Virus record (IMG/VR): IMGVR_UViG_2541047502_000022
Span: 1-10,682 of that record
Reading direction: 5' to 3' (one strand)
Origin: a virus
Taxonomy: Duplodnaviria > Heunggongvirae > Uroviricota > Caudoviricetes
DNA: 10,682 nucleotides
The position numbers and the translations under genes were made by a program. This document shows, piece after piece, positions 243 through 10,682 of this stretch (position 1 is its first letter; every line of letters begins with the position of its first letter). The notes beneath the pieces were generated by a model that saw only the letters and a program-made list of their open reading frames with translations, searched no databases and had not been told where the DNA came from.

Positions 243-263
243 GTGATGACCGGAATCAAAATT

Positions 264-1493
264 ATGAGCAGAGCACTTAACAAACTGAGCGATACACAGC
301 TGAGGAAAATCAACGGCACACCCGCCCAAAAAACAGCCTTTCTTAATGACGGTGGAAACCTGAGCGTCAGGCATTCAACCAGTGGCCTTTTAACCTGGTA
401 TTTCACTTACAGGGCCGGAACGGGAAGGGGGGCACCACCGGAACGCATTAAGCTGGGAAATTATCCTGATCTGAGCCTGAAATCAGCCAGGGAAAAAGCC
501 GCCCAGTGTCGCGCATGGCTGGCAGAGGGGAAAAATCCACGTCATGAGCTTAATTACACCGTACAGGAAGCGTTAAAGCCGGTAACGGTTGGCGATGCGC
601 TCACCTACTGGCTTGAGTCGTACGCAAAGGAAAACCGCGTGGATTATGCCGCCCTGAAAAAGCGCCTTAATAATCACGTAATACAGCACATTGGTGCTAT
701 GCCGCTGGATAAATGCGAGCTACGGCACTGGCTGGCCTGTTTTGACCAGGTGGCAAAGCGAACGCCTGTTACTGCCGGATTCTTGCTACAGACGTGCAAA
801 CAGGCGCTTAAGTTCTGCCGGAGGCGGCGCTATGCAATCAGCAACGTTCTTGATGATATGAGTGTGGCGGACGTTGGGAAAAAACCGGATATAAGCGAGC
901 GTGTCTTAAGCACCAAAGAACTGGGCGAATTATTGCAGGCACTGGACAAAAAAATATTCTCCCCCTACTACATCGCGTTAATCCGCCTCCTGATTGTGTT
1001 CGGATGCCGGACGGTAGAACTGAGGTTATCGGAGATCAGCGAGTGGGATTTTACCGAAATGCTCTGGACCGTTCCGAAGGAGCACAGCAAAACGAAGGTA
1101 GCCATATTCCGGCCTATACCGGAAGCAATACTGCCGTTCATCACGCAGCTGGTGGAGCAGAACAGGCACACGGGCTTATTGCTGGGGGAAGTGAAACAGG
1201 AGGCCAGCGTATCGCAGTATGGAAGATTAGCGCACAGGAGGCTTAATCACCCTCACTGGTCACTGCATGACATCCGGCGCACCTTTACAACCATGCTGAA
1301 CGATTTAGGCGTTGATCCGCATGTCGTGGAGCAGCTTACAGGCCACCAGATGCCAGGAATGCAGCGAGTTTATAATCATTCCCGTTATCTGGATGCGAAA
1401 CGCAATGCGCTGGATATGTGGACGGAGCGGTTAGGGATACTGGCGGGAACACATGAAAACGTAACCACGCTACCAGTAGCCAGAAGAAAATAA
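264..1493 (+). CDS. int: Tyrosine site-specific integrase, P4-like
   Basis: ORF 243-1493. The C-terminal catalytic region has HDIRRTF (H-x-x-R) and YNHSRYL (catalytic Tyr); the N-terminus (KLSDTQLRK...NDGGNLSV) resembles the arm-binding region of P4-type integrases. ATG at 264 gives the usual N-terminal length; GTG 243 and ATG 246 are alternatives. Confidence 0.9.
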   Translation: MSRALNKLSDTQLRKINGTPAQKTAFLNDGGNLSVRHSTSGLLTWYFTYRAGTGRGAPPERIKLGNYPDLSLKSAREKAAQCRAWLAEGKNPRHELNYTVQEALKPVTVGDALTYWLESYAKENRVDYAALKKRLNNHVIQHIGAMPLDKCELRHWLACFDQVAKRTPVTAGFLLQTCKQALKFCRRRRYAISNVLDDMSVADVGKKPDISERVLSTKELGELLQALDKKIFSPYYIALIRLLIVFGCRTVELRLSEISEWDFTEMLWTVPKEHSKTKVAIFRPIPEAILPFITQLVEQNRHTGLLLGEVKQEASVSQYGRLAHRRLNHPHWSLHDIRRTFTTMLNDLGVDPHVVEQLTGHQMPGMQRVYNHSRYLDAKRNALDMWTERLGILAGTHENVTTLPVARRK

Positions 1494-1857: not shown

Positions 1858-2046
1858 GTGTTAAGCACTGATCGGTTTATACGTGAAAAAGAATGCGAAA
1901 AACTAACCGGCCTTAGCCGTACGTGTCGCTACCGCCTGGAAAAGGCCGGACAATTCCCATCACGTCGTAAACTTGGCGGTCGTTCCGTTGGCTGGTCTTT
2001 ATCCGAGGTTCTGGCCTGGAAGGATAGCTGCAAGGCAGTTCATTAA
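1858..2046 (+). CDS. alpA: AlpA-family transcriptional regulator / excisionase-like protein
   Basis: 62-aa protein with GTG start preceded by AAGGGGG 7 nt upstream. Sequence (CEKLTGLSRTCRYRLEKAGQFPSRRKLGGRSVGWSLSEVLAW) fits the AlpA/MerR-like small HTH family. Sits immediately downstream of int, as in P4-like islands and PICIs. Confidence 0.85.
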   Translation: MLSTDRFIREKECEKLTGLSRTCRYRLEKAGQFPSRRKLGGRSVGWSLSEVLAWKDSCKAVH

Positions 2047-2192
2047 TCACGCTGGCGGCACACAGCCGCCACACATCAATCATCTGAACACAGAGCTATA
2101 ACCATGAAGATTGAATATACGCCAGAACGTGGGCGGGGATTCGTTCGCCCTGGTGAGACTGGAAAACCACAAAATTGGGGTTTTTCAGGCAT

Positions 2193-2226
2193 AAAAAAAG
2201 CGGCCCCGAAATGGAGCCGCCTTTCT
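2193..2226 (-). terminator. Intrinsic terminator for the minus-strand RHH operon
   Basis: On the minus strand, GCGGC (2220-2216), an 11-nt loop, GCCGC (2204-2200), then seven U (2199-2193). The stem can extend by G-U and A-U pairs. Confidence 0.45.
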
Positions 2227-2315
2227 GAACAGATAACCCGCTGCGCCTTATGTGTATATGATCCCAAACATAAGCACGGGGATGATAGCCGCTATCAGGC
2301 TGGTGGGCAATGCTA

Positions 2316-2504
2316 TCAGTCTGGTTCAGTTCGTTGCCATACCTGCAATGGGCGCGTTTCCCTGTACTCTTTAAGGAATTGCTCAAGGGCAAAAGCACAT
2401 GGCGCGAATCTTTCTGATTCATGCTCTATCTTTCTGCGCCGTCTTTTCCGTGCCGGTGATAATGTTTTGGTCAATTCTTTATCGGTCATTGTGTTGTCCT
2501 GCAT
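2316..2504 (-). CDS. Hypothetical small basic protein, second gene of the minus-strand RHH operon
   Basis: 62-aa ORF in the same frame and strand as the RHH gene, starting 43 nt after its stop and lying before the minus-strand terminator. Contains a basic patch RKRRRRK. Weak RBS; alternative start at the internal Met (2489). Confidence 0.25.
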   Translation of the reverse strand: MQDNTMTDKELTKTLSPARKRRRRKIEHESERFAPCAFALEQFLKEYRETRPLQVWQRTEPD

Positions 2505-2546
2505 AGCAATGCGCCGTAATACCTCACACCACGGCGCTGATAGTTT

Positions 2547-2720
2547 TTATCCTTTGGGTTCTATGCCGCGTTGCTGTAATTCTTTGCGGAGAACGCGTTT
2601 AATCCAAGTGGCTAAAGATGTGTCGCCATCGGCCTTAGCAGCTTCTTCTAGCTGCGCTCTGAAGTCTTCCGGTAATCGCATTTGGTATGGAGGCGAACGT
2701 TTTTCTAATGGTGTTGACAT
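2547..2720 (-). CDS. Ribbon-helix-helix (Arc/CopG-type) DNA-binding protein, candidate repressor of the island
   Basis: 57-aa ORF found by hand translation of the minus strand: MSTPLEKRSPPYQMRLPEDFRAQLEEAAKADGDTSLATWIKRVLRKELQQRGIEPKG. The MRLPEDFRAQLEEAAKADG...S..A.I motif is the hallmark beta-strand plus helix A of Arc-like RHH proteins. Divergent from the plus-strand operon, with palindromic sites over its own start. Confidence 0.7.
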   Translation of the reverse strand: MSTPLEKRSPPYQMRLPEDFRAQLEEAAKADGDTSLATWIKRVLRKELQQRGIEPKG

Positions 2721-2762
2721 GGTAATTACCCTTTATTGCTATACCTACATGGTAATTACCAT
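2717..2762. promoter_or_regulatory. Paired palindromic operator candidates (ACATGGTAATTACC x2, core GGTAATTACC)
   Basis: The 14-bp direct repeat occurs at 2717-2730 and 2747-2760, each with the perfect 10-bp palindrome GGTAATTACC; the second extends to a perfect 14-bp palindrome ATGGTAATTACCAT (2749-2762). Centres are 30 bp apart. The first overlaps the RHH start codon and RBS. Confidence 0.5.
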
Positions 2763-2787
2763 TGTACTTGCCATTACACAAAAATCA

Positions 2788-2821
2788 ACGCCCCGCAGTG
2801 CTGGGAACACATACGGGGCGT
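2788..2821. other. 8-bp perfect stem hairpin (ACGCCCCG / CGGGGCGT) with 18-nt loop in the divergent control region
   Basis: Arms at 2788-2795 and 2814-2821 are exact reverse complements. On the minus strand it is followed by TGATTTTTG, so it may insulate the RHH promoter from upstream minus-strand transcription. Confidence 0.35.
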
Positions 2822-2850
2822 CTAACCAACAACGTAAACTAGGAGCCGTT

Positions 2851-3048
2851 ATGGTTGCCGTAAATCATATACCACACCTTGTACACACACAAACGGCCTT
2901 TGTGTGGCGTTTTCTGGCACTGAGTGCCGGAGAATCTCAAATCATCCACGTAACCGCCTGGACGGAACGCGAAGCGCGTAACCGTTGCCCGTCCGGTTGT
3001 GTTGCTGTATTTGCCGCCCGTATTCGTCAGGAGGTGCGCCATGATTAA
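2851..3048 (+). CDS. Icd-like small protein (putative host cell division inhibitor family), first gene of the plus-strand operon
   Basis: 65 aa; ATG 2851 preceded by AGGAG (2841-2845). The motif FVWRFLAL...TEREAR...VFAARI matches my recollection of the Icd-like family common in P4-like islands; assignment is from memory and unverified. Its stop overlaps the next start. Confidence 0.5.
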   Translation: MVAVNHIPHLVHTQTAFVWRFLALSAGESQIIHVTAWTEREARNRCPSGCVAVFAARIRQEVRHD

Positions 3049-3253
3049 TCTGTCACTTACTGACCTTAACCGCATTCAGTTTCGTGAGAAATTCACAGGG
3101 CAGCTACTGGTCAATGTGGATAAAGGTCGCGTGGTGTGTAATTACCACTTACCAGATGAAGCAATTGTCGCCACAAGGGAATCATTACAGGAAATCACAA
3201 AACGTGCCGGAATGATTAACACGAATATTCAGGGGATGCTTTATGCACAATAA
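3041..3253 (+). CDS. Hypothetical protein (70 aa)
   Basis: ATG 3041 with a strong RBS AGGAGG (3029-3034). Overlaps the upstream gene stop and the downstream start (ATGCACAATAA). No recognisable motif. Confidence 0.6.
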   Translation: MINLSLTDLNRIQFREKFTGQLLVNVDKGRVVCNYHLPDEAIVATRESLQEITKRAGMINTNIQGMLYAQ

Positions 3254-10272: not shown

Positions 10273-10682
10273 GTAAGCGTACAGCGAGGGCCGTATTGAC
10301 GGGGATGTGTTATTCAGCTGGCAGTGCTATGCGCCACGGAAGCAGTTCGCTGACCCGGTTGACCGGCCAGTCTGCTATGACGCCAAGCACATGGCGAAGG
10401 TAGCTTTCTGGATCCACGTCATTCAGTTTGCACGTCCCGATCAGGCTGTACAGTAGCGCTCCCCGCTCACCACCATGATCAGAGCCGAAGAACAGGAAGT
10501 TTTTACGACCCAGACTGACCGCCCGCAGGGCATTTTCAGCGATGTTGTTGTCGATTTCCACCCAGCCATCGTTCGCATAGTACGTCAGTGCCGGCCACTG
10601 GTTAAGTGCGTACGCGAACGCCTTCGCCAACTCTGAGTGTCGCGACAGGGTCTTCATCTTTTCACGCAACCAGCTTTCCAGG
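10273..10682 (-). mobile_element. IS66-family insertion sequence, partial (one end plus transposase 3' region), continues beyond the window
   Basis: GTAAGCG at 10273-10279 resembles IS66-family termini, and the adjacent minus-strand ORF encodes an IS66 TnpC C-terminus. The element runs off the window edge. Confidence 0.65.
10310..10682 (-). CDS. IS66-family transposase, C-terminal part (5' end lies outside the window)
   Basis: The translation [75 protein letters not shown] matches the conserved IS66 TnpC C-terminus. The reading frame stays open to the window edge upstream of the ORF-track Met at 10669. Confidence 0.8.

Follow-up and report, generated by a model that had tools for sequence, protein, structure and literature searches.

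The immunity I region of phage P22 comprises two ribbon-helix-helix (RHH) repressors, Arc and Mnt, the promoters Pant and Pmnt, and an antisense RNA, sar. A candidate switch of similar logic is described here in IMG/VR virus record IMGVR_UViG_2541047502_000022 (Caudoviricetes), the whole 10,682 nucleotides of which are referred to below as the window. The window holds an island of the type of EcCICFT073, the model Gram-negative phage-inducible chromosomal island (PICI) (PMC6092414), and on its minus strand a 57-aa RHH gene opposes the island's replication operon. We put the probability at roughly 70% that a dimer of the encoded protein binds each of two palindromes lying between gene and operon and thereby represses both the operon promoter, P_div, and its own promoter, as an autoregulated repressor of the replication operon. 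Such a repressor was thought to be missing from Gram-negative islands, and the RHH protein is probably the one in question. The prevailing view of these islands is that they are activated by AlpA in response to a helper-phage signal still to be identified, and it has been unclear whether they have a global repressor (PMC6092414); later satellite work discusses RNA immunity only (PMC10111431). In the literature searched, neither an RHH repressor of PICIs nor its operators nor an antisense or leader RNA is described, though papers beyond that literature could exist.

Among described systems, P22 immunity I is the nearest in logic. Common to both are small autoregulated RHH repressors (putatively so in the window), symmetric operators in or over closely set, opposing promoters, an antisense RNA of about 70 nt over the ribosome-binding site of the downstream gene (in the island only a predicted one), and a controlled operon that opens with small regulatory or antirepressor-type genes. 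The window differs in that its RHH protein has no significant match to Arc (Pfam E 0.038, sub-threshold), in that the operon under its putative control carries satellite replication and packaging functions, and in that the repressor's coding sequence itself contains the −35 element of the target promoter. As a small RHH repressor switch the system is of a known kind; its role, its architecture and its occurrence in phage satellites appear new.

The PICIs of Gram-positive bacteria, among them the Staphylococcus aureus pathogenicity islands (SaPIs), likewise place a repressor gene, Stl or Rpr, next to the replication operon and opposed to it (PMC6092414). The window follows this layout, with an opposed gene and putative operators over the operon promoter, in position and architecture only. 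Stl repressors are much larger helix-turn-helix (HTH) proteins with helper-phage-sensing domains, whereas the 57-aa RHH protein has no room for a sensor; moreover, int and alpA of the window lie on the strand opposite the repressor gene, and Gram-negative induction needs AlpA. Kinship with the Stl/Rpr family was accordingly rejected, none of the Pfam, NCBIfam or PHROG matches of the 57-aa protein being to an Stl-type or HTH family. The preliminary description of this locus had proposed a master repressor facing the operon, as in Stl control. The first part of that proposal gains from operators that are fixed in a conserved P_div and co-vary with the protein across genera; of the second, a similarity of logic is all that stands.

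Satellite P4 offers a parallel of map position, since its immunity locus is also found between the alpA homologue, vis, and the replication genes with an Icd-like gene nearby, and some related loci hold an RHH cassette together with C4 and isrK RNAs in the operon (PMC10111431). P4 immunity, in contrast, is RNA-based premature termination (CI RNA/seqA) without a protein repressor, and the leader of the window, which has no C4 or isrK match, is a different element. The YlcI/YnfO family of small prophage proteins (NF041551) resembles the window protein in size and predicted β-α-α layout and occupies the same slot in other islands, but those islands carry direct-repeat operators of other sequence, and the window protein was rejected as a member of the family (18.7 bits against a cut-off of 30). 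With RHH antitoxins and copy-control repressors (CopG, ParG, omega, AmrZ) it has the fold class in common; it differs from them in having neither a conserved toxin partner nor a C-terminal extension, and in its phage-satellite context.

The 57-aa open reading frame (ORF) is a real gene, as seen from its codon-position pattern, its homologues of the same length and its fold matches. The 93 homologues, nearly all of 54-62 aa, come from Enterobacterales, Pasteurellaceae, Aeromonas, Oceanimonas and Gilliamella. Across 54 unique homologous DNA sequences, diversity at the three codon positions of the RHH frame is 0.26/0.14/0.57, and synonymous changes account for 60% of the codon differences there versus 39% in the overlapping plus-strand frame. 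The protein alignment leads from a (Y/F)Q(M/I/L)RL strand through a helix and a D-G-D-x-S/T turn into a second helix, reproducing the layout of the RHH superfamily (an N-terminal β-strand in which polar residues alternate, followed by two helices with a G-x-(S/T/N) turn between them). An AlphaFold2 (AF2) model, with a predicted local distance difference test score (pLDDT) of 78, places helices at residues 18-31 and 36-50 and leaves the N-terminus extended, as expected of a monomer model. Nearly all of the top 50 Foldseek matches in the PDB are RHH proteins (AmrZ, Arc, CopG, ParG, NikR, PutA and antitoxins), superposing with root-mean-square deviations (rmsd) of about 1-1.5 Å across some 36 residues; the best of them is AmrZ (3qoq), at 37% identity over 38 columns and an rmsd of 1.3 Å. 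PHROG 228, "Arc-like repressor", matches the protein with an E-value of 1.5e-6. Alignment, PHROG 228, AF2 model and Foldseek thus agree with the RHH assignment made earlier from the bare sequence, and the evidence for the predicted fold is good, though it does not come by way of curated thresholds. A sequence profile search of the PDB turned up designed helical repeats, which are spurious matches, and AmrZ at no better than E 1. The protein stops 7 residues past helix 2, with no C-terminal partner-binding extension.

Two identical palindromes 30 bp apart had been noticed in front of this gene, and these are present as exact copies of GGTAATTACC, designated O1 (proximal) and O2 (distal). The proximal copy is placed after the ribosome-binding site and ahead of the ATG, abutting the start codon rather than covering it as first described. 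The true repeated unit is 14 nt long, ACATGGTAATTACC, and the distal copy forms a 14-bp palindrome, ATGGTAATTACCAT. At up to one mismatch, GGTAATTACC has three matches in the window where 0.25 would be expected, a number reached by none of 200 shuffled sequences.

The arrangement is conserved well beyond the window. In nearly all of a comparison set of 60 loci encoding RHH relatives, drawn from about 25 genera, a palindrome stands immediately 5′ of the RHH ATG and a second one 30-31 bp (sometimes 34) farther upstream, abutting a −10-like hexamer; the positions, −10 and about −40 from the ATG, are kept while the intervening sequence varies. Most of the 43 unique upstream regions have O1 at −10. 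The palindrome itself changes from one group of loci to another, and it does so in step with the β-strand of the protein. Proteins with the strand RSP(Q/P)(Y/F)QMRL are paired with GGTAATTACC (O1 found in 18 of 22 unique regions) and those with KTDQYQ(I/L)RL with TGTAATTACA (both sites in 9 of 10), while RSPQFPMRL goes with GGTATATACC and GNPPFQFRL with GTGTAATTACAC. Palindrome and β-strand therefore change together as expected for a repressor and its operators, and from this co-variation across genera we infer that an RHH dimer binds the palindromes through its β-ribbon.

Further matches to the operator sequence were seen in the window. A possible degenerate third site next to O2, whose reverse complement is ATGGCAAGTACAAT, is tentative; a better copy of it, 12 bp from O2, is found in loci L002, L014, L018 and L068. 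A one-mismatch copy, TGTAATTACC, lies at 3137-3146, within the operon's 70-aa gene. When up to two mismatches are allowed the number of matches in the window rises to 14, where 3.8 would be expected and no shuffle out of 200 gets as high; these scattered matches could reflect either base composition or weak secondary sites. A search upstream of alpA found no operator copies.

The operators coincide with two predicted promoters. P_div combines a consensus −35 hexamer, TTGACA, with a −10 element across a spacer that contains the proximal palindrome, and its −35 hexamer is the antisense of RHH codons 1-3, that is, it lies within the RHH coding sequence. In 36 of 42 unique regions the hexamer at this fixed position is a perfect TTGACA, a −10 element with at least 4/6 consensus positions follows in 35 of the 42 after 16-18 nt, and the synonymous choice at RHH codons 2-3 is fixed, keeping TTGACA intact. 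A promoter-scanning tool picked out P_div, at the identical coordinates, in one Shigella and one Pasteurella locus, scoring 11/12 in each. The RHH promoter points the other way. The two promoters face each other and overlap, with predicted start points about 5 nt apart, and both lie beneath the two operators; what had been described as a divergent layout is thus correct in opposing a minus-strand gene to the operon, but a plain back-to-back arrangement of the promoters does not describe it.

Taken together, these features suggest how the switch would work. An RHH dimer would read each 10-bp palindrome through its N-terminal β-ribbon. O1 would sit in the spacer of a near-consensus σ70 promoter aimed into the operon of Icd-like, replication and packaging genes, and O2 would cover the points where transcription from P_div and from the RHH promoter begins; with operators over both promoters, occupancy would shut both. 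The operon would then be silent in the integrated island while the repressor limited its own level, and different islands would use different RHH proteins with matching operators in the same place. The features concerned are listed in the table with those discussed further below.

Features of the switch region and of the genes around it (positions are those of the window)
Feature	Position	Strand	Details
57-aa RHH gene, candidate repressor	2547-2720	-	ORF list, homologues, codon pattern, PHROG, AF2, Foldseek
Operon promoter P_div (predicted)	2714-2742	+	-35 TTGACA 2714-2719; 17-nt spacer with O1; -10 TGCTAT 2737-2742; predicted start ~2749
Putative proximal operator O1 (GGTAATTACC)	2721-2730		between RHH ribosome-binding site and ATG; in operon-promoter spacer
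Putative distal operator O2 (GGTAATTACC)	2751-2760		14-bp palindrome 2749-2762; abuts RHH -10; just past predicted operon-promoter start
RHH promoter (predicted)	2788-2761	-	-35 TTGATT 2788-2783; 16-nt spacer; -10 TACAAT 2766-2761; predicted start ~2754; scan 9/12
Possible degenerate third site (reverse complement ATGGCAAGTACAAT)	2761-2774		11/14 palindrome matches; overlaps RHH -10; tentative
Second small gene	2316-2489	-	57 aa from ATG 2489 (62 aa if 2504); phrog_21027, E 3e-16
Hairpin between the small genes	2511-2537	-	directly after RHH stop; fold -16.9 kcal/mol
Intrinsic terminator of minus-strand unit (predicted)	2190-2226	-	-25.5 kcal/mol, z -4.1, then U7
Conserved GC-rich hairpin, then U-run 2787-2779	2788-2821	-	fold z -3.2; read as intrinsic terminator of leftward RNA
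Candidate cis-antisense RNA, ~77 nt	2857-2779 (about)	-	inferred from promoter element and terminator
Candidate antisense-RNA promoter	2892-2864	-	-35 TTGTGT 2892-2887; 17-nt spacer; -10 TATGAT 2869-2864
alpA	1858-2046	+	Pfam Phage_AlpA, E 5e-17; island activator per PMC6092414
Icd-like gene, first in replication operon faced by the switch	2851-3048	+	NCBIfam phage_ICD_like, 64.8 bits (cut-off 25); RefSeq annotation

Several points weigh against this interpretation. Each Foldseek match carries an E-value of about 1, because the protein is short. The profile search that the preliminary description had called for gave the PHROG match already cited, but the curated models fell below their cut-offs: Pfam Arc (PF03869) aligns in register at 14.3 bits (E 0.038), under its gathering score of 20.4, and the NCBIfam YlcI/YnfO model, also in register, stays under its own limit. 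In two Pantoea loci the RHH protein is present and the palindromes are absent. The O157 allele of P_div reads TGCTAT where the near-identical E. coli alleles of loci L067 and L068 have TACTAT; the A-to-G change, which may be a down-mutation, falls at the most critical position of the −10 element, and P_div may therefore be weak here. Over-expression of AlpA alone induces EcCICFT073 (PMC6092414), so that a repressor, if present there, is bypassed or is not the sole control; EcCICFT073 carries a YlcI/YnfO-type cassette, not the RHH gene of the window. Finally, binding and repression by the RHH protein are predicted from comparative evidence.

Some of the same points would fit a narrower account, in which the RHH protein autoregulates its own small operon only and the apparent P_div is a by-product of the conserved RHH start. 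O2 abuts the RHH −10 element and O1 covers, on the DNA, the RHH ribosome-binding region, as such autoregulation would have it; the −10 of P_div in the window is poor; and AlpA alone suffices in EcCICFT073, with its other type of RHH protein (PMC6092414). A by-product of the RHH start, however, would not explain why, in 35 of 42 regions, the −10 of P_div is kept correctly spaced amid variable sequence, nor the fixed synonymous choice at codons 2-3 in favour of TTGACA. The scores of 11/12 in distant genera likewise speak for a functional promoter, and in islands whose RHH genes are unrelated, repeats again overlie an operon-facing promoter, here of the form TTGACG-17/18-TAnnnT. We regard restriction to autoregulation as unlikely.

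The islands with unrelated RHH genes are informative in their own right. EcCICFT073 and other E. coli islands have, in the identical slot, an unrelated small RHH protein that is a member of YlcI/YnfO (60-67 bits; 67.4 bits against NF041551 for the EcCICFT073 protein). Alignment of the window family with the EcCICFT073 RHH by hhalign gave a probability of 0.5%, which is not significant, and the two are therefore treated as two cassette types rather than one family. The YlcI/YnfO-type genes of L063, L064 and EcCICFT073 come with their own repeats over an equivalent operon-facing promoter. In CFT073 this promoter is TTGACG-18-TATAGT and the repeats are GGGCCACACC; in L063 they are TTGACG-17-TAATAT and GGTGTCAGCCAC, respectively. 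The flanks of the cassette are conserved between islands whose RHH genes are unrelated. The RHH gene and its putative operators thus appear as a unit that behaves as an exchangeable, immunity-like specificity cassette, the mosaic pattern being that of an immunity region. The hairpin directly after the RHH stop codon has the same sequence behind the unrelated RHH genes of L062-L064 and, on this comparison, marks the likely recombination junction between variable cassette and conserved backbone; it may also attenuate read-through into the second small gene. The RHH family is nearly absent from phage records, the best of 4 matches being a 15-kb record that resembles a capsid-forming PICI. In one locus, L067 of E. 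coli O111:H-, both cassette types occur in series (1423-2667), the 57-aa RHH gene with GGTAATTACC operators being followed by a gene for a 101-aa YlcI/YnfO-type protein before the Icd-like gene.

Downstream of the RHH gene, the minus-strand unit continues into a second small ORF and ends at an intrinsic terminator, as had been noted in the preliminary description; a phrog_21027 match, in-frame indels among homologues, and a fold with z −4.1 followed by U7 support both elements. Terminators that act only in the RHH direction also follow the RHH gene in Xenorhabdus loci and in one E. coli locus. The second ORF, first listed as a 62-aa frame at 2316-2504(-), is on comparative evidence a real gene: its 38 homologue clusters, confined to E. 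coli and Shigella, differ by in-frame indels around an invariant core, SERFAPCAFALE-FLKE, behind a basic N-terminus (RKRRRRK). Its length requires revision, however. Most homologues are 57-60 aa long and align from residue 6, and since there is also an AGGA ribosome-binding site at ATG 2489, that codon is the most likely start. A search with this product, which had been proposed along with that of the RHH protein, returned phrog_21027.

The pairing of an RHH gene with a small basic protein had also been considered as a toxin-antitoxin or repressor-antirepressor pair; a toxin-antitoxin module would be of type II, with the RHH protein as antitoxin and the basic protein as toxin. The gene order fits, the operators suggest autoregulation, and some databases name homologues "HicB family antitoxin" (PMC13612085). 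The two genes do not travel together, however: the second is absent beside RHH in 60 of 60 loci outside E. coli, RHH stands alone in the Xenorhabdus loci, and within E. coli the same second gene also follows unrelated RHH genes, so that no conserved toxin accompanies the RHH protein. The RHH protein, which ends so soon after helix 2, offers no partner-binding tail. The second protein has no Pfam or NCBIfam match, and a PADLOC search of both small proteins and the next four gene products gave zero defence matches. That the two genes form such a pair is very unlikely, and the suggestion is not upheld.

In principle the palindromes could instead be bound by another factor, such as AlpA, the integrase or an excisionase, or a host protein, with the nearness of the RHH gene incidental. 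Nothing direct favours this beyond the fact that AlpA activates island gene expression (PMC6092414). The palindromes track the RHH β-strand and not alpA or int, since at the loci concerned those two genes often lie far off or belong to other types; a 10-bp two-fold palindrome suits one RHH dimer; and alpA has no similar site upstream. We consider binding by another factor highly improbable.

The RHH gene has been obscured by annotation. RefSeq labels 2104-2697(+) an "Icd-like pseudogene" in O157:H7; this interval is part of a 314-aa ORF at 2104-3048 and represents the antisense frame of both small minus-strand genes. The Icd-like hidden Markov model (HMM) covers only residues 266-309 of that ORF, corresponding to the separate gene at 2851-3048, and the RefSeq call is therefore an antisense-frame artefact. 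That RefSeq is right, with a plus-strand Icd-like remnant and minus-strand ORFs arising by chance, is scarcely credible despite the long open plus-strand frame and its PGAP pseudogene annotation, because stop codons interrupt this frame in 25 of 54 homologous sequences, its synonymous share lies well below that of the RHH frame, the HMM match falls outside the interval, and the sharing of third codon positions with the RHH frame accounts for its staying open. The result is a systematic annotation error in O157:H7 genomes, where an antisense "Icd-like pseudogene" hides a real gene. The RHH gene had been called unannotated, which holds for the O157 allele; elsewhere its homologues are annotated under several names (hypothetical, "Arc family", "HicB family antitoxin", "YlcI/YnfO family"), and later surveys list it as an accessory "YlcI/YnfO" or "HicB" protein (PMC13612085).

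A repressor of the operon promoter may not be the only layer of control. The leader that separates the operators from the first operon gene stays conserved in loci where that gene differs, and it contains two hairpins supported by covariation: 89% of alignment cells are paired and 13 of 17 pairs are compensatory, a result equalled by 0 of 500 shuffles, while slid controls give 26-43% pairing. Mismatches on the plus strand are A.C (35) more often than G.U (12), so that the minus strand pairs better. On that strand the GC-rich hairpin and its U-run resemble an intrinsic terminator, and a TANNNT element lies at an identical offset from the first-gene start codon in 41 of 45 unique loci (background 3.7%), an offset kept although the encoded N-termini of the first gene differ. 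A transcript between these elements would span the ribosome-binding site (2841-2845) and start codon (2851) of the Icd-like gene. On balance, we lean toward a leader that encodes a cis-antisense RNA of about 77 nt and thereby adds translational control over the Icd-like gene; this small RNA would form the second layer, masking the translation start of the first operon gene.

Other readings of the leader were less satisfactory. Nut-like (boxA/boxB) and CsrA-site interpretations were rejected, since about half of the loci lack GGA loops and the asymmetry of wobble pairs favours the other strand, and a terminator-like hairpin inside the Icd-like gene, 2886-2906(+), folds no better than shuffled sequence (z +0.6 and +0.9) and was dropped. 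An Rfam scan of the window at E-values up to 1 gave no match; the leader is therefore not a member of the C4 (RF01695), isrK (RF01394) or sar families. C4 and isrK are the satellite immunity RNAs known so far (PMC10111431), C4 RNAs being relatives of the P4 immunity RNA CI and also of P1 c4. C4 RNAs do occur in other islands, within the first operon genes and further downstream than the leader (L062 4405-4492, L063 4251-4436, L029 4507-4723), accompanied in L063 and L029 by isrK, a seqA-type partner site, and standing alone in L062. All three of these loci also carry an RHH cassette, so that protein and RNA control layers coexist in some islands.

How AlpA would override such a repressor is a more speculative matter. 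The alpA gene is convergent with the RHH unit, and there is no effective terminator in the alpA direction before the RHH gene, the 2190-2226 element being weak on the plus strand (z −1.6). Transcription from the alpA promoter might thus run antisense across the RHH gene and into the operon. In P4, a late promoter upstream of the alpA homologue, vis, reads through into the replication operon (PMC10111431). We advance read-through across the RHH gene as a tentative account of AlpA override. The AlpA of Pseudomonas aeruginosa is an antiterminator (PMC7969949), which is taken here as a lead only and not as support. A wider scheme can be drawn for classical and capsid-forming PICIs alike, in which immunity has two layers, an exchangeable RHH cassette defining heteroimmune classes and an antisense RNA, and AlpA acts by read-through. 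The RHH protein would silence a strong constitutive operon promoter and the RNA of about 77 nt would block translation of the first gene, while AlpA, rather than being a classical activator at P_div, would cause read-through that silences the repressor and expresses the operon at once. In its full generality this scheme is doubtful.

The assignment of the window to the Gram-negative PICIs follows from its gene content and position. The order is int 243-1493(+), alpA, the Icd-like gene, a DUF4222 gene, a RepA-type helicase, SSB, PerC, capsid/decoration homologues and terS; it matches the EcCICFT073-type plan of int, alpA, a replication module (DUF4222, helicase/primase, SSB), PerC, capsid/decoration genes and terS at a specific chromosomal site. 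E. coli O157:H7 chromosomes are 100% identical to the window across 2100-3100, and there the island lies between roxA and phoQ. Insertion site and gene order both match those of EcCICFT073 (PMC6092414), and the window is therefore taken as its O157:H7 counterpart. Of 5426 complete E. coli genomes, 1777 contain DNA that matches the module. Near the right edge of the window, 10310-10669(-) holds a fragment of an IS66-family accessory or transposase-like ORF, whereas strain TR01 has at the equivalent place a short hypothetical gene and then phoQ; the window therefore derives from a strain with an insertion at the island end. Just after int and upstream of alpA, about six (G/C)AACAA motifs recur at a spacing of some 10-11 bp (1530-1590), a run that could represent arm-type integrase sites or binding sites for AlpA or an excisionase.

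If the RHH protein does repress the replication operon, the published alpA-to-ORF3 reporter constructs, which likely contained the RHH cassette, would have to be reinterpreted. The exchange of RHH proteins together with their operators would offer a possible explanation of immunity classes among islands. Satellites of the Gram-negative PICI kind are widespread and mobilise virulence and defence genes, and the switch described here would provide a concrete and easily testable candidate for what silences them.

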